Positions 11,565 through 64,000 of a stretch of DNA of 64,000 nucleotides are shown here, one piece after another. The notes beneath the pieces were generated by a model. That model did not search any database. It saw only the letters and a list, made by a program, of their open reading frames with translations, and was not told the DNA's origin. Made by a program: the position numbers and the translations under genes. Every line of letters begins with the position of its first letter. Position 1 is the stretch's first letter. The DNA comes from a virus. The stretch is taken from IMG/VR virus record IMGVR_UViG_3300027896_000017, positions 1-64,000 of that record, one strand, 5' to 3'.

Positions 11565-11925
11565 GGGGGTGCACGGTTTCGACAGATTTGATGAAAATTA
11601 AGTTGCATGTCGTGGATGATTGTTGGCCACGTTAAACATCAATCACGTATCAACTGCCGAAGATTATTCTTTCGCAGAAATGCTGAAAGTCGCCTAATTA
11701 AAGGTGACGAGGGTTAGTGATCATGCTCTGAATCATTAATCTACTAATGAGCTAGAGATTATATGGGTGGCCTTCGTGACATATAATTTTGAAATTATCT
11801 GAGGTTGATCTTGAGATGGTATTGCTGGTATCGAGTTTCAAGATCATATCTAAAACCAGCTAAACATGTAGTAACTTAATTAGAGTCGAATTTGGACAGG
11901 AGTTCAATTCTCCTCACCTCCACCA
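11565..11925 (+). ncRNA. ssrA: tmRNA
   Basis: 5' GGGGGTG..GGTTTCGAC; 3' T-arm AGGAGTTCAATTCTCCT and CACCTCC-ACCA; tag ORF AEDYSFAEMLKVA* at 11656-11697. Confidence 0.95.
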
Positions 11926-39415: not shown

Positions 39416-40810
39416 TTAAGATGCAAATGCTTTTGTAATAGTGGAAAAATAATTGGTACCGTTATAATATATAGACACTATATCAATAGCACTTGCTGTA
39501 GTGCTTAATACTAATCCTAAAGCTGTACCCCCAGGTGCTCTTACAGTATTGGGCCAAGTTGCGACTTTACTACCAGTACCGTCTTGAGTGCATCTTAATA
39601 CTAAATTGCAGGGCCCATTAGGAGCTGAAAAGATAAAAGTGCAATTTCCAGTTAAGGTTATTTTTTGTTTTTGCCCATTAATCCAGTTAATTGTGGTAGC
39701 CCCGCTACCATTACCATTATCGTACTCAGATACATATGATGCTGTTTTTAAGGCGGACATATCGCCAGAATCGCTTAATATTACAGAGCTATTTTGAATG
39801 GTTTTGCCATCAGCGCCACTCCATCTAACAATAGCCTTATCTGTAGAAGAAACTGGCATAACATATCCAGATCCAGAATAACCAGAAGTTCCTGACGTTC
39901 CAGACGCCCCAGATATTCCAGATGTTCCAGAAGTCCCAGACACACCAGAAGTTCCAGACGTTCCAGATGCTCCAGATGTTCCAGAAGTTCCAGAAGTTCC
40001 AGAAGTTCCAGAGGTTCCAGAAGTACCTATTCCAGAGACTCCAGACGTTCCAGAAGTTCCTGATGTTCCAGACACCCCAGATATTCCAGATGTCCCAGAA
40101 GCCCCAGACACACCAGAAGTTCCAGATGCTCCAGATGTTCCAGATGTTCCAGATGTTCCAGATGTTCCAGATGTTCCAGAGGTTCCAGAAGTACCTATTC
40201 CAGAGGCTCCAGACGTTCCAGAAGTTCCTGACGTTCCAGATACCCCAGATATTCCAGATGTCCCAGAAGTCCCAGACATACCAGAAGTTCCAGACGTTCC
40301 AGATGCTCCAGATGTTCCAGATGTTCCAGATATTCCAGAGGTTCCAGATGTTCCAGAAGTACCTATTCCAGAAGCCCCAGACGCTCCAGAAGCTCCTGAT
40401 GTTCCAGATGCCCCAGATATTCCAGATGTCCCAGAAACCCCAGACGTTCCAGACGCTCCAGACGTTCCAGAAGTTCCAGAAGTTCCTGAAGTTCCAGACG
40501 CTCCAGATGTTCCAGATTCTCCAGATGTCCCAGATGTTCCAGAAACTCCTGATGTTCCAGATCTTCCTGACGTCCCAGATGTTCCTGATGCCCCTGATAT
40601 TCCAGACGTTCCAGAATAACCAGAATAGCCATAAGTATTAGGATTTATAGAACGATAAACCCCATTAGCGTCTCGATATCCTAAATTTCCAGTATCGTTC
40701 TCAATCCCTATTTGACATAAATCTATATGGCTATTTAAATCCGAACTAGTGTTATTAATTTCGGTAATGTGGACCTGTTCGGCATTAATATCATTATAAG
40801 TATTGGGCAT
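39416..40810 (-). CDS. Gly-X-Ser repeat fibre protein
   Basis: About 250 aa of (SGT/SGA/SGV)n; N-terminus shared with the 45481-51180 protein; tail-fibre-like C-terminus. Confidence 0.8.
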   Translation of the reverse strand: MPNTYNDINAEQVHITEINNTSSDLNSHIDLCQIGIENDTGNLGYRDANGVYRSINPNTYGYSGYSGTSGISGASGTSGTSGRSGTSGVSGTSGTSGESGTSGASGTSGTSGTSGTSGASGTSGVSGTSGISGASGTSGASGASGASGIGTSGTSGTSGISGTSGTSGASGTSGTSGMSGTSGTSGISGVSGTSGTSGTSGASGIGTSGTSGTSGTSGTSGTSGTSGASGTSGVSGASGTSGISGVSGTSGTSGTSGVSGIGTSGTSGTSGTSGTSGTSGASGTSGTSGVSGTSGTSGISGASGTSGTSGYSGSGYVMPVSSTDKAIVRWSGADGKTIQNSSVILSDSGDMSALKTASYVSEYDNGNGSGATTINWINGQKQKITLTGNCTFIFSAPNGPCNLVLRCTQDGTGSKVATWPNTVRAPGGTALGLVLSTTASAIDIVSIYYNGTNYFSTITKAFAS

Positions 40811-45480: not shown

Positions 45481-48400
45481 TTATGTCTCCTGACTTAAGG
45501 CTATTAAGTCCCATTTATCATCAGCCGCATGATAAATAAATCCCATATACAAAGTCTTTGATAAAACAGTTGTAGTAGGCAAAGCATTCCCCATTGCCCG
45601 ATACTTATCTCCAAAAGAAATAGCTCTTGCTGTTCCATTATCTTTTATTCTGATTATTAATTTTTCTCCCAATACCGGCGTTGATGTAGAATGATTATTT
45701 ATAGTTATTGCACCAGCTAAGGCGGTTATTGCGTAAATATCATATGTATCTATTTCAGGTGTCAAAGAAGTGTTAGAGGCCACACTTAAAGATCTTGGCT
45801 GATTCCTTTTATTAGTAAATGTAGTTGTGCTACTTGCAGTAACTCCTGCATATCCCGAAACACCAGAAGTTCCAGATGTTCCAGATGTTCCAGATGTCCC
45901 TGATGTTCCAGACACCCCAGACGTTCCAGATGTTCCAGAATACCCAGACGTTCCAGACGTTCCAGACGTTCCAGACGTTCCAGACGTTCCAGACGTTCCA
46001 GACGTTCCAGACGTTCCAGATGTTCCAGATGTTCCAGACGTCCCAGATGTCCCAGATGTTCCAGAATATCCACTTGTTCCAGATGTTCCAGATGTTCCAG
46101 ATGTTCCAGATGTTCCAGATGTTCCAGATGTTCCAGATGTTCCAGATGTTCCAGATGTTCCAGATGTTCCAGATGTTCCAGATGTTCCAGATGTTCCAGA
46201 TGTTCCAGAATATCCACTTGTTCCAGATGTTCCAGAATATCCACTTGTTCCAGATGTTCCAGATATTCCAGACGTCCCAGACGCTCCAGACGCTCCAGAC
46301 ACTCCAGACACTCCAGATGTGCCACTATATCCAGAAACCCCTTGAACAGTAAATGTAGTTTCTACCCAAGAAGAATCAGTCGTGCCCTGATATGTCCATG
46401 TCGCATTATGAGCATTAGCTTCACTATTTATAGCGACCACTCTAATTATAATTCTGTCTGTACTAAGTATTGATATTGGAGATTCTATTGTCCAATAGGT
46501 GTCATATGCGGTCACATCCACTGTAAGGGCCCCTGTAGATCCTACTACACCTCCAGATAGGGCGGTTACCACACCTGTAGCGGATCGTTTTTCTATTACA
46601 TAACCCGCTGATACATGCGCATTATTTGCAGAAAATCTACCATGAAATTTCCACGTTCCAACTGGTATTGAGGTCTCGCCTGGAACCGTTGCAACTGTTA
46701 GATAGCTATCAAAAGGAACATATGAAGAAGCGCTGGTTATTCCAGTAAGATTTTCTGTTGTTTCAGTACCTGTTGCCGGAACTCTTGTCAATTTTTCACA
46801 ATTTATTGTAATGGTAGCGGTAGTATTATTATTTGAATTAGTTAAAGAACCATATCCATTAGTAACAGTTATTGTCGAAGCAGTAACTGAGCGTATTGCC
46901 CATTCGTGGGTATCCATGGCTGTTGAAGAATTTGTAACTATAAATTTTTGACCAACTACCCAATTATCAGTTACAAAACTACCCGCGCCACTTCGAACTA
47001 TCGTGCCGGCGGCAGCAGAAAATGTAAAAGTATCTCCACCTGAAGCTTGTGAAGTAGGAGTGGTAATATCAGAACTTGTAGTATCAAACCAAAATTTTTG
47101 TCCAGTTACAGCCCCTTGTACTCCACTATACCCACTATTTCCAGAATATCCAGATGTCCCGGATGTTCCAGATGCTCCAGATGTTCCAGATGCTCCAGAC
47201 GCTCCAGATGTTCCAGAATATCCGCTTGTTCCAGACGCCCCAGACGCTCCAGACGCCCCAGATGTTCCAGATTCTCCAGATGTTCCAGATTCTCCAGATG
47301 TTCCAGATTCTCCAGACGTTCCAGATTCTCCGGATGTTCCAGATTCTCCAGAATATCCAGATTCGCCAGATGTTCCAGATGTTCCAGATACTCCAGATGC
47401 TCCAGACGTACCAGACGCCCCAGAATATCCTGACGTGCCAGAATAACCTTGTAATCCTGGTTCATCAGAAAAATTTATAGGTCTTGCAAAATCTTCTGGG
47501 ACAGTTTCTAAATTCCATCTTTTTGCATACATGAATTGAAAGTATACGTCTTCAATGAATGCTTTTTCTACTTCGCCATCATTATAAATATATGTAGTAA
47601 GTGTCCATGTTCCCGAATATCCAGAAATTCCGCCAGAATGCGTAATCTTACCATAATATTCATTGCCGCTTTCATCTGCTATTGGATTATGATTAATACC
47701 ATTTCTTAAATTACATATATCTTCATAGCCGCTTACCGGGACGCCTTCAGTTGTGTCAGGAAAAGAATCAACCGCCCTTTCTCCAATCATAGAATCGCTA
47801 ATATCATATTGAGAAATTCCTGAATATCCAGAAACGCCCACAAAAGCTTGTGTATTAGATATAATTTTTCTACCTTCAAAATTTGCGGTACTTCCTGATA
47901 TTCCAGATTCTCCAGAATATCCTGATTCACCAGAATATCCTGATTCACCAGAATATCCTGATTCACCAGAATATCCAGATTCGCCTGACGTTCCAGATGT
48001 CCCAGATGTCCCAGATGTTCCAGATGCCCCAGATTTTCCTGAAGTTCCAGATGCTCCAGATTCTCCAGAATATCCTGATTCTCCAGAATATCCAGATTCG
48101 CCTGATGTTCCAGACGCTCCAGATGTTCCAGATGTTCCAGACGTTCCAGATTTTCCTGAAGTTCCAGATGTTCCGGATTCTCCAGAATATCCTGATTCTC
48201 CAGAATAACCCGATTCTCCAGAATATCCTGATTCTCCAGAATATCCTGATTCTCCAGAATATCCAGATTCACCTGATGTTCCAGACGTTCCAGACGCCCC
48301 AGATGTTCCAGATGTTCCAGACGTTCCAGATTTTCCTGAAGTTCCAGATGTTCCGGATTCTCCAGAATATCCTGATTCTCCAGAATATCCTGATTCTCCA

Positions 48401-51180
48401 GAATATCCAGATTCGCCTGATGTTCCAGACGTTCCAGACGCCCCAGATGTTCCAGATGTTCCAGACGTTCCAGATTTTCCTGAAGTTCCAGATGTACCAG
48501 ATTCTCCAGACGTTCCAGATTCTCCAGAATATCCTGATTCCCCAGAATACCCTGATTCTCCAGAATATCCTGATTCTCCAGAATATCCTGATTCTCCAGA
48601 ATATCCAGATTCACCTGATGCTCCAGATGTTCCAGACGTTCCAGATGTTCCAGATGTTCCAGATGCTCCAGATGTTCCAGATTTTCCTGAAGTTCCAGAT
48701 ATACCAGATTCTCCAGATGTTCCTGATTCTCCAGAATACCCTGATTCTCCAGAATATCCTGATTCTCCAGAATATCCTGATTCTCCAGAATATCCAGATT
48801 CACCTGATGTTCCAGATGTTCCAGACGTTCCAGATGTTCCAGATGTTCCAGATGTTCCAGATGTTCCAGATGTTCCAGATGTTCCAGACGTTCCAGATTT
48901 TCCTGAAGTTCCAGATGTACCAGATTCTCCAGAATATCCTGATTCTCCAGAATATCCTGATTCTCCAGAATGTCCTGATTCTCCAGAATATCCAGATGTC
49001 CCGGATGTTCCAGATGCTCCAGATGTTCCAGATGCTCCAGACGCTCCAGATGTTCCAGAATATCCGCTTGTTCCAGACGCCCCAGACGCTCCAGACGCCC
49101 CAGATGTTCCAGATTCTCCAGATGTTCCAGATTCTCCAGATGTTCCAGATTCTCCAGACGTTCCAGATTCTCCGGATGTTCCAGATTCTCCAGAATATCC
49201 AGATTCGCCAGATGTTCCAGATGTTCCAGATACTCCAGATGCTCCAGACGTACCAGACGCCCCAGAATATCCTGACGTGCCAGAATAACCTTGTAATCCT
49301 GGTTCATCAGAAAAATTTATAGGTCTTGCAAAATCTTCTGGGACAGTTTCTAAATTCCATCTTTTTGCATACATGAATTGAAAGTATACGTCTTCAATGA
49401 ATGCTTTTTCTACTTCGCCATCATTATAAATATATGTAGTAAGTGTCCATGTTCCCGAATATCCAGAAATTCCGCCAGAATGCGTAATCTTACCATAATA
49501 TTCATTGCCGCTTTCATCTGCTATTGGATTATGATTAATACCATTTCTTAAATTACATATATCTTCATAGCCGCTTACCGGGACGCCTTCAGTTGTGTCA
49601 GGAAAAGAATCAACCGCCCTTTCTCCAATCATAGAATCGCTAATATCATATTGAGAAATTCCTGAATATCCAGAAACGCCCACAAAAGCTTGTGTATTAG
49701 ATATAATTTTTCTACCTTCAAAATTTGCGGTACTTCCTGATATTCCAGATTCTCCAGAATATCCTGATTCACCAGAATATCCTGATTCACCAGAATATCC
49801 TGATTCACCAGAATATCCAGATTCGCCTGACGTTCCAGATGTCCCAGATGTCCCAGATGTTCCAGATGCCCCAGATTTTCCTGAAGTTCCAGATGCTCCA
49901 GATTCTCCAGAATATCCTGATTCTCCAGAATATCCAGATTCGCCTGATGTTCCAGACGCTCCAGATGTTCCAGATGTTCCAGACGTTCCAGATTTTCCTG
50001 AAGTTCCAGATGTTCCGGATTCTCCAGAATATCCTGATTCTCCAGAATAACCCGATTCTCCAGAATATCCTGATTCTCCAGAATATCCTGATTCTCCAGA
50101 ATATCCAGATTCACCTGATGTTCCAGACGTTCCAGACGCCCCAGATGTTCCAGATGTTCCAGACGTTCCAGATTTTCCTGAAGTTCCAGATGTTCCGGAT
50201 TCTCCAGAATATCCTGATTCTCCAGAATATCCTGATTCTCCAGAATATCCAGATTCGCCTGATGTTCCAGACGTTCCAGACGCCCCAGATGTTCCAGATG
50301 TTCCAGACGTTCCAGATTTTCCTGAAGTTCCAGATGTACCAGATTCTCCAGACGTTCCAGATTCTCCAGAATATCCTGATTCCCCAGAATACCCTGATTC
50401 TCCAGAATATCCTGATTCTCCAGAATATCCTGATTCTCCAGAATATCCAGATTCACCTGATGCTCCAGATGTTCCAGACGTTCCAGATGTTCCAGATGTT
50501 CCAGATGCTCCAGATGTTCCAGATTTTCCTGAAGTTCCAGATATACCAGATTCTCCAGATGTTCCTGATTCTCCAGAATACCCTGATTCTCCAGAATATC
50601 CTGATTCTCCAGAATATCCTGATTCTCCAGAATATCCAGATTCACCTGATGTTCCAGATGTTCCAGACGTTCCAGATGTTCCAGATGTTCCAGATGTTCC
50701 AGATGTTCCAGATGTTCCAGATTTTCCTGAAGTTCCAGATGTACCAGATTCTCCAGACGTTCCAGATTCTCCAGAATATCCTGATTCTCCAGAATATCCT
50801 GATTCTCCAGAATATCCAGATTTACCTGATGTTCCAGATGTTCCAGATGTTCCAGATGTTCCAGATGTTCCGGATTTTCCTGAAGTTCCAGATGTACCAG
50901 ATTCTCCAGAATACCCAGATTCTCCAGAATATCCTGATTCTCCAGAATATCCAGATTCACCTGATGCCCCAGATGCTCCTGAATATCCTGAATATCCTAT
51001 ACTATCTGGATTTATAGTATGATAAGTCCCATGGGAATCTCTATATCCAAGATTGCCGGTATCATTTTCAATGGCTATTTGACCAAGATCTAAATGTTGG
51101 CGCAATAAAGTTTCAGAATTATTGATCTCGGTAATATGCACCTGTTCGGCAAGCGGGTCTTCATATATATCGTCTGACAT
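45481..51180 (-). CDS. giant Gly-X-Ser repeat fibre protein
   Basis: (SGT/SGE/SGY/SGK)n tracts interspersed with globular domains. Confidence 0.8.
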   Translation of the reverse strand: MSDDIYEDPLAEQVHITEINNSETLLRQHLDLGQIAIENDTGNLGYRDSHGTYHTINPDSIGYSGYSGASGASGESGYSGESGYSGESGYSGESGTSGTSGKSGTSGTSGTSGTSGTSGKSGYSGESGYSGESGYSGESGTSGESGTSGTSGKSGTSGTSGTSGTSGTSGTSGTSGTSGESGYSGESGYSGESGYSGESGYSGESGTSGESGISGTSGKSGTSGASGTSGTSGTSGTSGASGESGYSGESGYSGESGYSGESGYSGESGYSGESGTSGESGTSGTSGKSGTSGTSGTSGASGTSGTSGESGYSGESGYSGESGYSGESGTSGTSGKSGTSGTSGTSGASGTSGTSGESGYSGESGYSGESGYSGESGYSGESGYSGESGTSGTSGKSGTSGTSGTSGASGTSGESGYSGESGYSGESGASGTSGKSGASGTSGTSGTSGTSGESGYSGESGYSGESGYSGESGYSGESGISGSTANFEGRKIISNTQAFVGVSGYSGISQYDISDSMIGERAVDSFPDTTEGVPVSGYEDICNLRNGINHNPIADESGNEYYGKITHSGGISGYSGTWTLTTYIYNDGEVEKAFIEDVYFQFMYAKRWNLETVPEDFARPINFSDEPGLQGYSGTSGYSGASGTSGASGVSGTSGTSGESGYSGESGTSGESGTSGESGTSGESGTSGESGTSGASGASGASGTSGYSGTSGASGASGTSGASGTSGTSGYSGESGHSGESGYSGESGYSGESGTSGTSGKSGTSGTSGTSGTSGTSGTSGTSGTSGTSGTSGESGYSGESGYSGESGYSGESGYSGESGTSGESGISGTSGKSGTSGASGTSGTSGTSGTSGASGESGYSGESGYSGESGYSGESGYSGESGYSGESGTSGESGTSGTSGKSGTSGTSGTSGASGTSGTSGESGYSGESGYSGESGYSGESGTSGTSGKSGTSGTSGTSGASGTSGTSGESGYSGESGYSGESGYSGESGYSGESGYSGESGTSGTSGKSGTSGTSGTSGASGTSGESGYSGESGYSGESGASGTSGKSGASGTSGTSGTSGTSGESGYSGESGYSGESGYSGESGYSGESGISGSTANFEGRKIISNTQAFVGVSGYSGISQYDISDSMIGERAVDSFPDTTEGVPVSGYEDICNLRNGINHNPIADESGNEYYGKITHSGGISGYSGTWTLTTYIYNDGEVEKAFIEDVYFQFMYAKRWNLETVPEDFARPINFSDEPGLQGYSGTSGYSGASGTSGASGVSGTSGTSGESGYSGESGTSGESGTSGESGTSGESGTSGESGTSGASGASGASGTSGYSGTSGASGASGTSGASGTSGTSGYSGNSGYSGVQGAVTGQKFWFDTTSSDITTPTSQASGGDTFTFSAAAGTIVRSGAGSFVTDNWVVGQKFIVTNSSTAMDTHEWAIRSVTASTITVTNGYGSLTNSNNNTTATITINCEKLTRVPATGTETTENLTGITSASSYVPFDSYLTVATVPGETSIPVGTWKFHGRFSANNAHVSAGYVIEKRSATGVVTALSGGVVGSTGALTVDVTAYDTYWTIESPISILSTDRIIIRVVAINSEANAHNATWTYQGTTDSSWVETTFTVQGVSGYSGTSGVSGVSGASGASGTSGISGTSGTSGYSGTSGTSGYSGTSGTSGTSGTSGTSGTSGTSGTSGTSGTSGTSGTSGTSGTSGTSGYSGTSGTSGTSGTSGTSGTSGTSGTSGTSGTSGTSGTSGTSGYSGTSGTSGVSGTSGTSGTSGTSGTSGVSGYAGVTASSTTTFTNKRNQPRSLSVASNTSLTPEIDTYDIYAITALAGAITINNHSTSTPVLGEKLIIRIKDNGTARAISFGDKYRAMGNALPTTTVLSKTLYMGFIYHAADDKWDLIALSQET
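47140..50722. repeat. near-exact 1842-bp tandem duplication inside the fibre gene
   Basis: 47140-~48880 matches 48982-~50722, including the non-repetitive domain. Confidence 0.85.
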
Positions 51181-51224
51181 AATATTTTCTTTCAATGGTT
51201 AAGTGCATGTTTAATATTCAATAA

Positions 51225-56906: not shown

Positions 56907-57656
56907 ATGGGAAAGCTGCATGAACACATTGCGGTGGAAAATGACATCAAAGGAACGCTATCGAAAATTATAGCAGAAGCCGCGACTACGTTCACCAAAA
57001 AAGACACGCATTTTGATGAGTCTTCAAGGCTTTATACTCCGTTTGTAGATGGAGATAAAGATATTCCAGAAACTGAAGTAACGCATATGGTTACTACAGT
57101 AAAAGACAAGCTTGACTATGTATTTCCATATCTGGCCAAAAACCTAGATCATACATATCAGAAGGAATTGGCCAATACGGTAGCAAAAGCTGATGTGGTT
57201 CTGGAGAACGGGACGGTTTTGGCAGAAAAAGTGCCGGTGCTTGTTCTGGTTCAGCTGGAGAATACATTAGAAGGCTTCAGAAAAAATGTTCTGGAAATCA
57301 TTCCCACATTGGATCCCAAGATTGATTGGGAACCTGATACGTCAGCTAAAAATGTGTGGAAGACCCGCAATGCCATCAAAACAGTCAGAACGAAGAAAAT
57401 AAATAAGCCAGTAATCGTAGTGCCGGCTTCAGACAAGTTTCAGGCACAAGGGCAATTGGTGCCTGAAGACATCCCTGTGGGCGAATTTGTCAAAACAGCT
57501 CGCACAGGAAGGTTCTCACCTCTTCAGAAAAGTGATATTCTTGCTAAAATGGACGTAATCATAGCTGCTGTAAAAAAGGCTCGCGCAAGGGCCAATGATA
57601 CGCCTATTGAGAACGTAACAATTGGCAAGAAGATTGTGGATTTTATTCTTGGTTGA
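56907..57656 (+). CDS. conserved hypothetical helical protein preceding structured RNAs
   Basis: AAGGAG RBS; promoter motif at 56839; IPTLDP and AVKKARARAN motifs. Confidence 0.8.
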   Translation: MGKLHEHIAVENDIKGTLSKIIAEAATTFTKKDTHFDESSRLYTPFVDGDKDIPETEVTHMVTTVKDKLDYVFPYLAKNLDHTYQKELANTVAKADVVLENGTVLAEKVPVLVLVQLENTLEGFRKNVLEIIPTLDPKIDWEPDTSAKNVWKTRNAIKTVRTKKINKPVIVVPASDKFQAQGQLVPEDIPVGEFVKTARTGRFSPLQKSDILAKMDVIIAAVKKARARANDTPIENVTIGKKIVDFILG

Positions 57657-57663
57657 ATATTAA

Positions 57664-57760
57664 TTTATATATTGCTAGTGTAGGATAGTCGGGAGGCTTT
57701 GAAGTGGGGGCGCTAGTTTCCATGGAGCCAAAAGTGGAATACCGATCTGCAATATATAAA
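57664..57760 (+). ncRNA. 23S rRNA L1-stalk (H76-H78) mimic
   Basis: GTGTAGGATAG..GGGAGGCTTTGAAG..CATGGAGCC..TGGAATACC enclosed by a 12-bp AT-rich stem. Confidence 0.75.
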
Positions 57761-57893
57761 ATAATATAATTGTATAAAGATTGACAATGCGAACTTATAA
57801 CTTCGCATTGTTATTATAGACACAATAGTCATATTTATATTCAGATTAATGAATAAAACTCAGGCTATTATGTGTCCCATGCTAAAAACAAAA

Positions 57894-58050
57894 ATGGTCG
57901 ATTTTGGTCTACAAAATCGTTATCCAAGCCCAATCACCGGTTCAAATCCGGTCTGGCTCTCTAAGAACATCTATATGATGTTTTTAAAGAGCCGGTAGCT
58001 TAGAGGTCAAAGCGGGGTGATAACAGTAAAATACGATTTGTTGTAACCAT
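57894..58050 (+). ncRNA. circularly permuted tRNA-like RNA (YrlA/Y-RNA-like)
   Basis: T-arm ACCGG TTCAAAT CCGGT, then loop-closed acceptor stem CTGGCTCT/AGAGCCGG, then D-arm TAGCTTAGAGGTCAAAGC; long closing stem. Confidence 0.7.
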
Positions 58051-58238
58051 TATCTTCTATGTAGCTCATCCTATAAAGATGATAACTATATAACTGACCG
58101 CCTGGGGGGAAGGGTATTCCCCCTGGGTATTTTTTTACCTTTTTTTATAAAACGTTATTTTAAGGTATTTTATGGTATAACTATATTGGAGAGGGTATAT
58201 CCGTACCTGATCCATAAACCTTTTTCCAGGGAGTGTAT

Positions 58239-58421
58239 ATGAATCCGGTTACAGCGCCCGCAGGAGCATTTGGTAAGGAAGTTATCAATAGCGTCATTTT
58301 TGGCGCTATCGCAGGAATTCTGATGGGGGTCACAGGGAGTGTCGTGACCAAAGCTTTGCAGCCCAGGGTTGACAAAGCAAATCAGGCCACCGGCAAGCCC
58401 GCCGGTGATACCAAGAATTAA
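58239..58421 (+). CDS. small membrane protein
   Basis: GGGAG RBS; promoter motif at 58171; one TM. Confidence 0.6.
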   Translation: MNPVTAPAGAFGKEVINSVIFGAIAGILMGVTGSVVTKALQPRVDKANQATGKPAGDTKN

Positions 58422-59319: not shown

Positions 59320-62300
59320 CTACCACGTATAATTCCCCGTAACGTACTCGGGGATAGGGTGATTTAACGGATTGCTGATTGATTTCCAACTCTGTGTGGT
59401 TCCTTCTTCAAGAACTTTTGCAATTCTATTGTGGGCCAATCTGGCTATCCAGTCCTCAGATGATTGGGCTTTTGCCTGAATTCCAGTAGGAGTTAAAAAT
59501 GGCTCATGTTTAATTCTGTCTTTAAAAACTTTGATTCTTTTGAATCCCCTTTCATCAAGTTTATTAATAACACTTTCATCTATTTTAGTATTCGCTTTAA
59601 ATGGCCCATAATTTTGAGCCAGATGATCCCCTTCAGTATCATAAATACTTTCTTCTTTTAAATTATTATTATTGTAATGTTCAACAGTCGTTAAAGGCGC
59701 GACGTCACCTTTTAAATAATTAGGATGACTGCCTGGTTCAAGTATTCTTGTGGTATTAGTTAATCCTCTGACTACAGTTTCAATATCGCGTTTATCCAAT
59801 TTACCTTCCATCAATTCATTTATATGATTAACAAGAAATTTTTGAGTTTCAGGCATACCTTTATATTTTAAAATATCATGAGCCGACGGAGTGCCAGTGC
59901 TTAACAGATCGCCGGATTTGACTAAAACACCAGGTTTAACTAATGGTTGATTGTTGGCATCAATATATCGTATTTCTTGTTTTTCTCCATTATCCAAATG
60001 AACATCCCATCCGCCAATGGGAGATTTTTTAATATCTTTTACAACACCATCGATACTCGCCAATGTGGCTTTGTCAGGATTATTTTTAGTAAATCGTAAC
60101 GTATCAAATAATTGATCAAATACTGTAGATCCTGGTTTTTTCTGAATTTGTAATGCGCCTCCGGTATGGAATGCTTTCATCGCCATGTTTAATGAAGGCT
60201 CAGTGATCGTGTGGGCTGAGATGATTCCAATATTATCTCCAATATTAGGTTTTTTTCCATCATAATTTACACCATATGAAAACGAAGAAAAGCCGTCTCC
60301 AGGAGTTGGGTCCGTTATTGGAGACTGAACATAAACTTTTTTAATTCCATGTTGGCTTAATTTATTCGCCACATCAGATGTTACAATATCATTTCGTTTT
60401 GCTATAATTTTTCCATTATCAGCTTTTGCGTCTTGCGCAAGGAACCTGTTTAATATGCCTTTATTGTCATTAATATCATATTCAAAACCTTTATTATCAA
60501 CCGGCTCATCGTGAGTTATTCTGGTTTCATAAATTGAATTAATCAAATCTTTTGTAAGCCATCCAGGCTTTGAAGAAGAAATTGATTTTTTAATATTACC
60601 ACCACGGGCCCCATGTGCAGCAGACCAATATCCAAAAGTATCCAATCCTTCAGAATAAGATTTAGTAATAGGCAGAGGTATAGGTCTATCTTCCGCATCA
60701 GTAACTATTCCAGGCATTAAAGCAATAGCGCTTATATTATCAATACCTTTAGTTCCTCCTGATTTCAAGCCAACGCCTATCATGGTATTTTCGCCATATT
60801 TATTTTCAAGTTCTTTTCTACCCTTCATTGTCATGGAACTGAACGCTTTAACTATAGACATGGGGTCTTTTTTATCTGAATTTTTTTCCGCCTCTCTTAC
60901 AAGAGAATCTCTTAAATCTCTATCAACAACCGTATCTGAAACACCAAGGGTGAAGCCAAAAATAGTAGAATAGTTATTTCCAACATCTTTAATTTTATCG
61001 GCTAATCCTAAAGCAATTTTTCCATTGTGTTTTTTGGTGACATCTCTAATCCACGATTCTACATTTTTACCATTCAATTCGATATCGTATTTTTTTAAAT
61101 CATCAGGAACCACACTGTTAATTTCATGCATACCAAAGGGAGCTTTTTTATCTCCAACCGTTACGGAGTCGGCATAGGTAAATTTATTCTGTTTAAAAGC
61201 ATTACGAGCCTGTTCCAGCGTATCAAATTTTAGACCAGTATCCTGTCCACCTTTACCCTTGGAGACAAGCCAGCTGCCTACAATCATGTCCATTTGAGGT
61301 ACATTAAGAACTGAATCGTATCCAGTTTTAAGCATAGAGGCTGAGGGTTTCATTTTTTCAGCTTCGGCAATGGCTTTGGGGGAAATGGGGACGTGTAACT
61401 GAAAGGTATCAAAAACAGGAATTCCATTTGAACACATAAACGTCATTGGCCCCGGAACGGTAATGTCATATAAACATTGTTTTTTATCAATAAAATTAAC
61501 TTTATCGGCGGTAAGCCATGTTATAGTATTATTATTAACAATTTCAATCCATTCACTTGGCAAACAATTATTAGACATAGAAATTATTTTTTTAGACATT
61601 AATCTCCCAAGCAAACCTTTTCGACAAGCCTTTCTCATTGAATCTCGCATTATTGGATCTTTAATAAATTTTTCGCATTTATCATACAAATCTTTATTCC
61701 AAGGCACCCTATCTACCATATTAATTGTTCTATTGGTAGCCATTGATGAAGATAAAAATTTTCTATATATTAAAGATTTTTCTTTATTCTTAAATATTAA
61801 TTCTTTGCCCCTTATATCAATAGAAGACATGCCAATATTATAATATGAATTATTATTTTTACTATAATAACTTATTAAACATGATATATTTAAACTTTTA
61901 CACATAGTTAAAATTTCGTCGGCAAGACGCAAAGATGTTGTTGCATATCTAAATTTAAAAGATCCATTACTATTAGAAAAGCCTATACTTCCGTCGGTAT
62001 CAAGCATTCCAGATAACAAACCAAGTTTAAATTCTTTAGGGGAAGACATATAACATGGCGGCAAGTGTTTGTTATAACAATTATGCCCAATTATATTTCT
62101 TAAATTTTCTGCCAAAGAAATATTTGATAATGATATATTTTTTCCAATATATTCATTTTTACTATTACAAATTTTCTTTTTATATTCATTAGACCAAAAT
62201 GTTGGTTCTGTTTTTAACAATTTTATAATATTAGATTTAAAAGAATTTTCAATATCTTGATGAATGGTCGCTATGTCGATTTTTTTTCCACTAGTACTAC

Positions 62301-64000
62301 CGTTTCCTATCATGATTCCTAAAAAATATCCAAATTCTTTTGTTAATTCTACACTATCAACACAATTAATAGACATTTTGTTTCTTTTAGAATAATTATT
62401 TAATAAAATATGTGTCACTGATTCCTCAATATTAAGTTGTTTAACTTTAGGTATTTGTTTTCCTACAATTTGTTTAGGGCTAATTTTTTCAAGATTCCAA
62501 GTATTAGTATTTAAATACACTGCACTATGATCGTCAGATAATATTAATGAATTTTTATCAGACATAGTAATTATACATGAGTTTAAATTTGGATGAATAG
62601 AAAAATGAGATACCGGTACAGATATGATTTGTTTTGTTTTATTGTCGATTGTTATAATTTTTATTCCTTTAGGAACCTCATATTCAATATTATTGCTATT
62701 TGTTAGCCGTTGAGTTCCCTCGATTCGGGGGAAATCTTCAATATTAATATGTATAATCTTTTCGCTGTCATTAATAATTAATCTATTTAATGTTGGCATA
62801 CTAACAATCCTTTCTGATAAGTATTTAATTGGATTATAATAAATATACTTATTTGAAAGGAATTGTGCAAGATATTTTTCATGTAAATTATTTAATTTAT
62901 TTCTATCAAAATCTCCGCCAAAATGAATTATTTTCTCATTCTTAATTTCATGTTTAATAATATTAAAATTAACTATAACAAAGACACTTTCCAACCCGCT
63001 ATCTCCGTCAAAATCCCCTCCAAAGTTTTTACTTACCACTACTCCTGGCACCTCTATAGATTTACCTTCTGTCAATATCGGTTTAAATGCAGTCATATTC
63101 CATCTGTGTAATGATGGCGCTCTGTTAGCTATTATTAATCGCTCATCAGCCACAACGTCCCTAGCTCTTTCTGCAACAGAAGTTTTATCTTCTATTTGTT
63201 TTTGTGCTTCAAGAGGCGTATACCCCCAACTCACCATTTTTTTCATTATAAAAGGTCTGAATATTTTAGAAGCCATTTCTTTAGGTATACCCATCTGATC
63301 TCCACCCAAATCTGGATTTAAAATAATAGTGGAGCGACCAACAAGATCCTGGCGTCTTTCTAAAACCTTATCTTGAAAGAAGCCTTCTTTTGATTGATTA
63401 GAACCCGCAATCTGTTCTACAAATCCTTTTTTATTTTTAATTCTATTAAGATATGAAGTTGGCGCTTGAAGGCCGGTAACAGATTTTAAGTCGTTATATA
63501 ACTGCCCCCTGGCTTCGGCTAATTGTAAGTTTTTAATATCCTCATTAGGGATTGATTTATCAAGTTGAGATTTTAAATCTTTTAACGCATTGGCTGTATG
63601 AGCTGTCTGTTGATACAAATCATTTATATCAGACATTATAATGGCGCCATCTCCAGCCATAGGTATCACCGGTCTGTATTTAGAAGGAGTGACCAATACG
63701 TTAGAAACTAAATAATCGGCAGGCTTCATTTTATGTTCTTTTAGTGCCCTTAAATATTTAATTTTTTTATTAAGTTTATCTATTTTTGTTGAATTTCTTT
63801 CATTTTTTAAAGCTTCAGTAGCTTGGTCTAAAGTTTCATTTACATCAATTGCTCCCAACATCGTCTCAAGGGCAGGTCCACCTGAAATGGAATCAGGAGT
63901 TCCAGGGCTAACTAGTTGTCCCGTTTTTTTATTAATAAATTGTTTGCCAGTAATGACGCCTTCCAATTTTATTAAAGGCATATCTAAAAGATTGGCTGCG
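59320..64000 (-). CDS. rpoC: phage DNA-directed RNA polymerase beta' subunit (5' truncated), intein-containing
   Basis: P.KYRP, RR.D..GRS, NRAPSLHR, GGDFDGD catalytic motif, AHGARGG, PGWLT, EP...M.MKAFHTGG. Confidence 0.92.
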   Translation of the reverse strand, partial: AANLLDMPLIKLEGVITGKQFINKKTGQLVSPGTPDSISGGPALETMLGAIDVNETLDQATEALKNERNSTKIDKLNKKIKYLRALKEHKMKPADYLVSNVLVTPSKYRPVIPMAGDGAIIMSDINDLYQQTAHTANALKDLKSQLDKSIPNEDIKNLQLAEARGQLYNDLKSVTGLQAPTSYLNRIKNKKGFVEQIAGSNQSKEGFFQDKVLERRQDLVGRSTIILNPDLGGDQMGIPKEMASKIFRPFIMKKMVSWGYTPLEAQKQIEDKTSVAERARDVVADERLIIANRAPSLHRWNMTAFKPILTEGKSIEVPGVVVSKNFGGDFDGDSGLESVFVIVNFNIIKHEIKNEKIIHFGGDFDRNKLNNLHEKYLAQFLSNKYIYYNPIKYLSERIVSMPTLNRLIINDSEKIIHINIEDFPRIEGTQRLTNSNNIEYEVPKGIKIITIDNKTKQIISVPVSHFSIHPNLNSCIITMSDKNSLILSDDHSAVYLNTNTWNLEKISPKQIVGKQIPKVKQLNIEESVTHILLNNYSKRNKMSINCVDSVELTKEFGYFLGIMIGNGSTSGKKIDIATIHQDIENSFKSNIIKLLKTEPTFWSNEYKKKICNSKNEYIGKNISLSNISLAENLRNIIGHNCYNKHLPPCYMSSPKEFKLGLLSGMLDTDGSIGFSNSNGSFKFRYATTSLRLADEILTMCKSLNISCLISYYSKNNNSYYNIGMSSIDIRGKELIFKNKEKSLIYRKFLSSSMATNRTINMVDRVPWNKDLYDKCEKFIKDPIMRDSMRKACRKGLLGRLMSKKIISMSNNCLPSEWIEIVNNNTITWLTADKVNFIDKKQCLYDITVPGPMTFMCSNGIPVFDTFQLHVPISPKAIAEAEKMKPSASMLKTGYDSVLNVPQMDMIVGSWLVSKGKGGQDTGLKFDTLEQARNAFKQNKFTYADSVTVGDKKAPFGMHEINSVVPDDLKKYDIELNGKNVESWIRDVTKKHNGKIALGLADKIKDVGNNYSTIFGFTLGVSDTVVDRDLRDSLVREAEKNSDKKDPMSIVKAFSSMTMKGRKELENKYGENTMIGVGLKSGGTKGIDNISAIALMPGIVTDAEDRPIPLPITKSYSEGLDTFGYWSAAHGARGGNIKKSISSSKPGWLTKDLINSIYETRITHDEPVDNKGFEYDINDNKGILNRFLAQDAKADNGKIIAKRNDIVTSDVANKLSQHGIKKVYVQSPITDPTPGDGFSSFSYGVNYDGKKPNIGDNIGIISAHTITEPSLNMAMKAFHTGGALQIQKKPGSTVFDQLFDTLRFTKNNPDKATLASIDGVVKDIKKSPIGGWDVHLDNGEKQEIRYIDANNQPLVKPGVLVKSGDLLSTGTPSAHDILKYKGMPETQKFLVNHINELMEGKLDKRDIETVVRGLTNTTRILEPGSHPNYLKGDVAPLTTVEHYNNNNLKEESIYDTEGDHLAQNYGPFKANTKIDESVINKLDERGFKRIKVFKDRIKHEPFLTPTGIQAKAQSSEDWIARLAHNRIAKVLEEGTTQSWKSISNPLNHPIPEYVTGNYTW
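61408..63000 (-). mobile_element. intein with LAGLIDADG homing endonuclease (531 aa)
   Basis: Inserted between GGDFDGD and TFQLHVP; starts with Ser; block B SDDH; FLGIMIGNG and LSGMLDTDG; ends LYDITV..NGIPVFD. Confidence 0.88.
62797..62870 (-). promoter_or_regulatory. sigma70-like promoter + RBS + in-frame ATG inside the intein
   Basis: TTGCAC-17 nt-TATATT; GAAAGGA 8 nt before ATG 62799. Confidence 0.55.

Follow-up and report, generated by a model that had tools for sequence, protein, structure and literature searches.

The locus described here raises the question of whether a bacteriophage encodes, away from any ribosomal RNA gene, its own copy of the ribosomal L1 stalk, and what such an RNA would do. 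The window, the whole stretch of 64,000 nucleotides that was analysed, comprises positions 1 to 64,000 of the IMG/VR record IMGVR_UViG_3300027896_000017, which is linear, 116,767 b in size and approximately 65% complete. The initial annotation had described a self-closed element in this window as a phage-encoded mimic of the L1 stalk of 23S rRNA, and the analysis bore this identification out: H77-H78 is present here in an isolated, self-closed form, and like copies recur in other phages with structure-preserving changes.

Judged from its sequence, the source record is that of a large, uncultured, freshwater tailed phage, with genes encoding a baseplate-J-like protein, collagen-repeat tail fibres and an intein-bearing subunit of a multisubunit RNA polymerase, and with a tmRNA gene. 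The tmRNA, of the one-piece type (11565-11925, + strand; Rfam score 160 bits) and with the unusual tag AEDYSFAEMLKVA, is located directly 3' of an RNA ligase gene (PF09414; 10608-11534, + strand). The RNA-polymerase beta'-like protein of 1,553 amino acids (59320-63981, - strand) contains Rpb1 domains 1-5 and is split by an intein with a LAGLIDADG endonuclease domain. The tail-fibre-like protein of 1,904 amino acids (45481-51195, - strand) consists mostly of collagen triple-helix repeats (13 Pfam stretches) and has a paralogue of 464 amino acids at 39416-40810. The features of the locus, together with the related modules found in other records, are collected in Table 1.

Table 1. Features of the element and its surroundings in the window, and stand-alone modules of the same kind in other IMG/VR contigs
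Feature	Position or contigs	Strand	Basis and remarks
DUF7873 family protein, 249 aa, upstream of element	57656 (end), 56907 (start)	+	Pfam PF25283, E 1.3e-62; ORF list
Whole element, self-closed, 97 bases	57664-57760	+	12-bp stem and 70-nt core
Closing stem, 5' arm, A/T-rich, in place of H76	57664-57675	+	Reverse complement; MFE fold
Core, 70 nt, copy of 23S rRNA L1-stalk head	57678-57747	+	blastn, alignments, model R1
T-loop 1	57682-57687	+	
H77	57688-57692 paired with 57742-57746	+	
GGGAG junction	57691-57695	+	
H78	57695-57729	+	
Linker and T-loop 2	57730-57741	+	Loop apex G at 57737
Closing stem, 3' arm	57749-57760	+	Exact reverse complement of 57664-57675
10-bp hairpin between module and tRNA-like RNA	57784-57811	.	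Terminator scan lists - strand only; + strand without U-run
Circularly permuted tRNA-like RNA, ~200 nt	57896-58097	+	Fold -91.3 kcal/mol, z -7.0
Intrinsic-terminator-like hairpin, 12-bp stem, 7 G-C pairs	58100-58128	+	Terminator scan; T-rich tail ATTTTTTT
Module type 1	L005/L012, L006/L016, L007/L020 (three contigs)		Identical module; in L016/L020 (153-kb record) only two tRNAs, 3.2 kb upstream of module
Module type 2	L014, L019, L008 (three contigs)		Extra ~60 nt inside H78 in L008; inside arrays of 28 (L014), 24 (L019) and 16 (L008) tRNAs; 528 nt before tRNA-Val
Module type 3	L013, L023 (two contigs)		Inside arrays of 39 (L013) and 37 (L023) tRNA matches; 51 nt before tRNA-Arg (L013)
Module type 4	L022 (one contig)		Nearest tRNA 23 kb off
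Module type 5	L090 (one contig)		61 nt before tRNA-Pro, group of five tRNAs
Module type 6	L118 (one contig)		205-kb record; only two tRNAs, 1.6 kb upstream of module

The element and its likeness to 23S rRNA

A blastn search with positions 57600-58200 against the phage collection matched 13 records with 78.8-83.3% identity (best E-value 1e-9). All 13 matches span 57678-57743 (query positions 79-144), and the subjects are 23S rRNA, either in records annotated as such or in unannotated short contaminant records covering the same 23S stretch. The core was 82-83% identical to enterobacterial 23S rRNA at the same E-value. The initial annotation had described a close match to E. coli 23S, but the closest type found was that of the Syntrophales. 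In contrast to blastn, the Rfam LSU model gave no match at E <= 10 across 57400-58300, the element itself included, and the 23S likeness therefore rests on BLAST, alignment and our own covariance model, R1. No Rfam family reached its threshold at the element. A match to the c-di-GMP-II riboswitch (RF01786), in which the outer stem is mispaired, scored 19.6 bits (E 0.29; gathering score 53.5) and was rejected as a chance match, as were weak matches to snoRNA and miRNA models.

A three-way alignment with Salmonella 23S rRNA showed both T-loop strands, the GGGAG junction and the ATACC strand to be identical. H77 reads GUCGG/CCGAU in the window as against GGUGG/CCACC in bacteria with its pairing intact, in agreement with the compensatory nature previously ascribed to these changes, and the pairs of H78 are retained as well. 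All 19 pairs of model R1 are standard or G-U pairs in the window, and the core scored 79.2 bits with this model, whose seed includes the window sequence. The 12-bp A/T-rich stem reported to replace H76 proved to be perfect. The duplex formed by the flanks has an energy of -16.8 kcal/mol, which was matched by none of 200 shuffles, and a 116-nt fold reached -35.2 kcal/mol compared with -21.6 +/- 2.9 for shuffled sequences (z -4.76). A loose motif pattern matched once in the window, where 0.04 matches were expected.

One genome per species was scanned with the H78 of the window, resulting in 17 places, all 17 of them in 23S genes of Syntrophales/Smithellaceae. The best Syntrophales 23S variant differs from the window core at 10 of 70 positions (86% identity, 60/70): five differences are in H77, one in H78, three in the linker before T-loop 2 and one at the loop apex, with none in T-loop 1, the GGGAG junction or the ATACC strand. 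All five H77 differences preserve pairing, and the single H78 difference turns an A-U into a G-U pair. A Syntrophales-like 23S unitig was present in the same sample, a weak hint to the host.

The element is not part of any rRNA gene. The Rfam LSU model (RF02541), which matched 13 of 14 control genomes, found no LSU rRNA in the 116,767-b record, as the initial annotation had stated for the flanks; no other rRNA was found in this record, and the flanks are a protein gene and an A/T-rich spacer. A DNA contig of 8,633 nt from Logan, separately assembled, spans 57000-58400 with no differences and covers both junctions, which speaks against an assembly chimera, although this contig may derive from the source sample and is then not independent data. 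Four complete genomes of the order Syntrophales contained no stand-alone copy, the one R1 match in each being the 23S gene. An attP-type integration remnant was rejected, because the record lacks an integrase and the element is not flanked by rRNA.

Stand-alone copies in other phages and their genomic context

A search of other phages for the isolated module, as the initial annotation had suggested, was productive. Using pattern and covariance-model (R1) searches, we identified 11 further IMG/VR contigs, 4.8-205 kb in size, that carry a stand-alone copy. Grouped by module sequence and flanks, these copies make up seven sequence types with that of the window included, and their carriers include large phages that are unrelated to each other. 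Each of 10 whole records searched contained exactly one R1 match, and Rfam scans at gathering thresholds of the module loci with 1.5-2.5 kb of flank gave no LSU match. No module was found in cultured phages (GenBank/INPHARED) by blastn with the window, L013 and L014 modules, which returned only 23S rRNA, contaminating 23S rRNA and tRNAs, and a pattern scan for a longer H78 (gap 56-86) gave no matches.

Several candidates were rejected. L003 (1-91, - strand) is identical to Syntrophales 23S rRNA from within H76 to the contig end and is probably an assembly run-in; L004/L010 is a true 23S rRNA; L011 and L015 are 23S-like pieces at contig ends; and L017/L018 and L021 (16.7 bits) are chance pattern matches. 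Some IMG/VR contigs classed as viral thus end in true 23S rRNA, probably as assembly run-ins at shared words, and could be mistaken for phage rRNA mimics.

Structure is kept across the copies. In the 8 distinct modules 89.4% of the pair cells are standard (90.6% with L003 counted in), compared with 69.4% in shuffles and 38-45% with slid partners, and 14 of the 19 pairs show change on both sides, a number reached by none of 500 shuffles. H77 occurs as GGUGG/CCACC, GUCGG/CCGAU, GUGGG/CCCAC and GCUGG/CCAGC. Immediately outside the core, each of the nine modules examined has a closing helix, built from unrelated sequences. The covariation among copies could partly be inherited from the rRNAs of different hosts and alone is therefore no proof of selection inside phages; the comparison with the nearest 23S type is more telling about the upkeep of structure.

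AGGATAG, the two inner G-C pairs of H77, GGGAG, the first H78 pair and TG.AATACC are invariant in 8/8 modules. These columns are, as we take it from L1-RNA crystal structures, the builders of the double T-loop core and the uL1 site, and uL1 presumably reads the H77/H78 junction around GGGAG. The core residues AG..A and UG..A (columns 5-10 and 58-62), through which two T-loops are described as locking head to tail (Lehmann 2013, PMC3664808), are present in all eight modules. Residues 2112 and 2169, given in the same source as the platform for tRNA-elbow stacking, are G/G in the window, thus purine-purine, and G/A, A/G or U/A in other modules. By sequence, the element appears to retain what is known to count in the binding of uL1 and the stacking of tRNA elbows.

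Relative to the Rfam bacterial consensus, relaxation is seen at the H77 pair of columns 12/68, in linker columns 54-57 and at the tip of H78. Columns 12/68 and the apex column 60 (A2169) are highly conserved in that consensus and changed in the window, the apex also in L090; these changes could weaken uL1 or tRNA contacts. The pattern of relaxed positions is what one expects of a copy freed from fitting a ribosome. That the tip of H78 tolerates large inserts is indicated by L008 (1390-1520, - strand) and L014 (1499-1567, + strand), from related phages with the same module and flanks, where L008 has ~60 nt more in H78.

The 10 other module-bearing records were searched with the tRNA model. In 10/10 tRNA-bearing records the module lies on the tRNA strand, and in five (G005, G006, G008, G012 and G014) it is embedded in arrays of 16-39 tRNAs. 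No tRNA genes were found in the window's own record. The proteins neighbouring the modules are unrelated between lineages. In the window the stop codon of the DUF7873 gene is 7 nt ahead of the closing stem of the element, but a profile scan for DUF7873 found 80 viral loci with the module in only one (L090), and the module was in none of 11 metagenome loci carrying the gene; a single-protein scan found no relative. On these sequence data the pairing of DUF7873 and module is not conserved. Together with the tRNA context and the unrelated neighbouring proteins, this suggests that the module behaves as a small RNA gene travelling with other stable-RNA genes, and the genomic context favours a link with tRNA genes. 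The absence of the module from the closest relatives by neighbouring gene (0/11 metagenome loci, 79/80 viral loci without it) means that it is dispensable or recently acquired.

At the closest DUF7873 relative (L137, 1531-1938, + strand; 65% identity) a tmRNA-like sequence was recognised by eye after the stop codon, and this stretch, with 5' and 3' ends, fills the place of the L1-stalk module and tRNA-like RNA of the window. RNA genes seem to use the site 3' of the DUF7873 gene as a landing place.

Directly upstream of the module in L014 (54-1322, + strand) and L008 (1556-2619, - strand) are an AAA_33 P-loop kinase and a calcineurin-like phosphoesterase, which as a pair recall RNA-repair enzymes of the polynucleotide kinase-phosphatase kind. 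A common layout is visible by eye, and in MFE folds, in L012, L014/L008 and L022; it extends from ~60 nt before to 20 nt after the core and consists of a G-rich strand, a hairpin, the module, and then UUUCC with a U-run or ribosome-binding site. The modelled layout is suggestive of a three-way junction, in which the outer helix could be in competition with base pairing to the Shine-Dalgarno sequence of the next gene.

The tRNA-like RNA that had been noted downstream of the element in the window is real (z -7.0) and starts 135 nt downstream of the module. It is arranged in the order T arm, closed 8-bp acceptor-like stem, D arm, with a long stem formed by both ends, and was not called by ARAGORN or by the Rfam tRNA and YrlA models. 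Bacterial and phage Y RNAs of the YrlA type are described as having the same order of arms in their tRNA-like domain (PMC4201824); a Ro60/YrlA link was rejected, as the record contains no TROVE gene and no YrlA match. The tRNA-like RNA is a possible partner or co-transcript of the module, and the strong terminator-like hairpin that follows it is probably the end of the RNA-gene transcription unit.

A second rRNA-like stretch was observed in the L023 record (L149, ~1470-1545, - strand; G006:C1, ~94.7 kb). It resembles the uL11 site in the GTPase-associated centre of 23S rRNA, to which 30 nt are 87% identical (E 4e-5), and is located within the tRNA array, ~100 nt after a tRNA and 3.8 kb from the L1-stalk module. 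A copy of the uL11 centre in the window's own record was rejected, the only match being a 14-base chance match.

Relation to known RNAs

In its two T-loops, H77, the GGGAG junction and the layout of H78, the element agrees with the bacterial 23S L1 stalk (H76-H78). It differs from the stalk in being phage-encoded and outside an rRNA gene, in the replacement of H76 and, in the window, in a swapped pair at columns 12/68, an A-to-G change at the apex and a 3' linker that is free to vary. In being cut at H76 and closed by a foreign stem it resembles laboratory L1-stalk fragments, such as the isolated fragment described for crystallography (PDB 3U4M; PMC3664808). A 55-nt Thermus fragment of L1-stalk rRNA is reported to bind L1 alone, more than 10 times better than the regulatory mRNA site (PMC2175363), and the rplK/rplA mRNA operators of L1 are given as 37-41 nt in length with a Kd of 25-50 nM (Fu et al. 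2013, PMC3616713). Like these leaders, the element is by its sequence an off-ribosome copy of the 23S rRNA site for uL1, and it would act as a competitor for that protein; unlike them, it is not in the 5' UTR of rplK/rplA and has DUF7873, tRNAs or unrelated ORFs as neighbours. The leaders are without T-loops and most of H78, whereas the phage element is the full domain, and by analogy it is expected to bind uL1 more tightly. The element is like both the L1 stalk and the L1 operator in how it would work, and is a member of neither class.

The double T-loop device for the tRNA elbow is described as common to T-box Stem I and the RNase P specificity domain (Lehmann 2013, PMC3664808). The phage element shares the double T-loop of this device, with a candidate elbow-stacking platform, and an association with tRNA. 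The T-box and RNase P modules have only six core residues in common with the L1 stalk and belong to larger RNAs with a second tRNA contact, whereas the phage element nearly duplicates the rRNA version and has no further parts. A T-box riboswitch was rejected, since there was no Rfam T-box match at E <= 10 and no aminoacyl-tRNA synthetase or amino-acid gene 3' of the element. The T-large motif was also discarded as a double T-loop RNA, being in the literature consulted a circularly permuted group II intron.

To our knowledge, rRNA mimicry has been known only as short operators on ribosomal-protein mRNAs. No description of a stand-alone phage copy of the L1 stalk was found in the article texts searched. 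The main account of a survey of more than 10,000 viral RNA candidates describes no such element and states that no rRNA prediction overlapped the candidates. The element is a variant of rRNA mimicry with a fair chance of belonging to something broader.

Candidate roles and their meaning

Phages seem to imitate the L1 stalk away from the ribosome. The explanation that we prefer, with a little less than even confidence, is that the RNA folds like an isolated L1 stalk and takes up host uL1 to form an off-ribosome particle. The element may be an RNA gene of the phage, or it may form the structured 3' terminus of the DUF7873 transcript. Transcribed together with the neighbouring stable RNAs, it would fold like an isolated L1-stalk fragment and could bind host uL1 with rRNA-like affinity, more than 10 times tighter than the uL1 operator on the rplK/rplA mRNA, resulting in a free 'mini L1 stalk' particle. 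Its most likely effect would be the capture of free uL1, by which the feedback repression of the L11-L1 operon would be lifted; in competition with the operator and nascent 23S rRNA, uL1 capture could also leave new ribosomes short of uL1. The particle would in addition display a purine platform on which tRNA elbows stack.

The uptake of uL1 is favoured because an isolated rRNA fragment binds L1, the phage RNA holds the whole rRNA site and the records contain no uL1 gene. The uL1 (Ribosomal_L1) gene was absent from the window's own record and from the 10 other module-bearing records, so any uL1 partner must be that of the host; among the scanned neighbouring ORFs of the window element there were no ribosomal-protein genes. 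Counting against uL1 capture, it is hard to see what a phage would gain from soaking up uL1, and no RNA runs containing the stretch are listed. A tRNA-directed role would account no less well for the tight link to tRNA genes.

Such a role, in which the element is a docking RNA for tRNA elbows, comes close behind uL1 uptake, although taken by itself we regard it as rather unlikely. The double T-loop platform, alone or with uL1, would act on phage or host tRNAs or on the permuted tRNA-like RNA, in trans or in cis on a precursor, and could serve the folding, processing, protection or sequestration of tRNAs. The location of the module on the tRNA strand in 10/10 records, many in or near arrays, argues for docking, as do the tRNA-shaped RNA that follows the module in the window, the invariance of the T-loop core residues and the purine-purine platform of the window. 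However, phage RNA genes cluster for expression reasons and adjacency need not equal interaction; the nearest tRNA in L022 is 23 kb away, the platform residues vary (G/A, G/G, A/G, U/A), and a second contact, such as the specifier or ruler helix to which T-box and RNase P owe their affinity, is missing. Since tRNA is bound jointly by uL1 and the platform when they are part of the ribosome, uL1 uptake and tRNA docking are not exclusive.

An improbable alternative is a cis-acting mRNA element, either as a block to 3' exonucleases, uL1-dependent or merely stable, or in control of the next ribosome-binding site. The module starts a few bases after a stop codon in the window and L014/L008, a start codon and a Shine-Dalgarno-like sequence follow within 35 nt in L012 and L022, and the conserved UUUCC after the module could pair with an upstream GGGG or a ribosome-binding site. 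This is difficult to reconcile with neighbouring proteins that are unrelated between lineages and with L013 and L090, whose neighbours are tRNAs rather than ORFs, and a full rRNA domain far exceeds the need of a roadblock.

Still more improbable is a decoy that would keep some other factor recognising the L1 stalk off the ribosomes; such a factor could be a nuclease or toxin of host defence, an enzyme that modifies rRNA or a factor of the E site. The case for it consists of how phage decoys work in general and of how faithful the copy is, together with the uL11-site-like stretch in the L023 record, a phage also bearing the L1 module; on the other side, no defence or anti-defence gene was seen beside the modules and the literature searched contained no system or toxin targeting the L1 stalk. 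We know of no defence system or toxin that does so, and the analysis found no support for the ribotoxin decoy that had been among the initial suggestions, beside a uL1 sponge and a dock for the tRNA-like RNA.

The least probable explanation, that the element has no function and is host rRNA scrap acquired by recombination or an assembly chimera, could draw on an H78 that is 1-2 bases from Syntrophales-type 23S rRNA, on the 23S unitig of that kind in the same sample, on the run-in of the L003 contig into true 23S rRNA and on close relatives without the module, but is opposed by the second assembly spanning both junctions, by the recurrence of the same 70-nt segment only, in seven sequence types each with a new complementary closing stem, by five H77 changes that all keep pairing, and by the core kept in L008/L014 despite the ~60-nt H78 insert.

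For uL1 capture and tRNA docking alike, an autonomous RNA of ~100 nt makes the candidate partners, uL1 and tRNA, directly testable. The uL11-site-like stretch concerns a different rRNA domain and protein from the L1 module, both proteins being encoded by the rplKA operon, and with it the element suggests a wider phage habit of copying the peripheral stalks of the ribosome. We tentatively propose, with confidence somewhat below even, that large phages with their own tRNA sets carry free copies of both ribosomal stalk RNAs (L1 and the uL11/GTPase centre) as translation-directed decoys of a new class, which off the ribosome would capture rplKA-operon proteins or tRNA elbows and so reshape host ribosome production or tRNA traffic. 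If true, a near-exact, self-closed ribosomal domain maintained as a viral RNA gene beside tRNA genes would represent a new route by which phages reach the translation apparatus.
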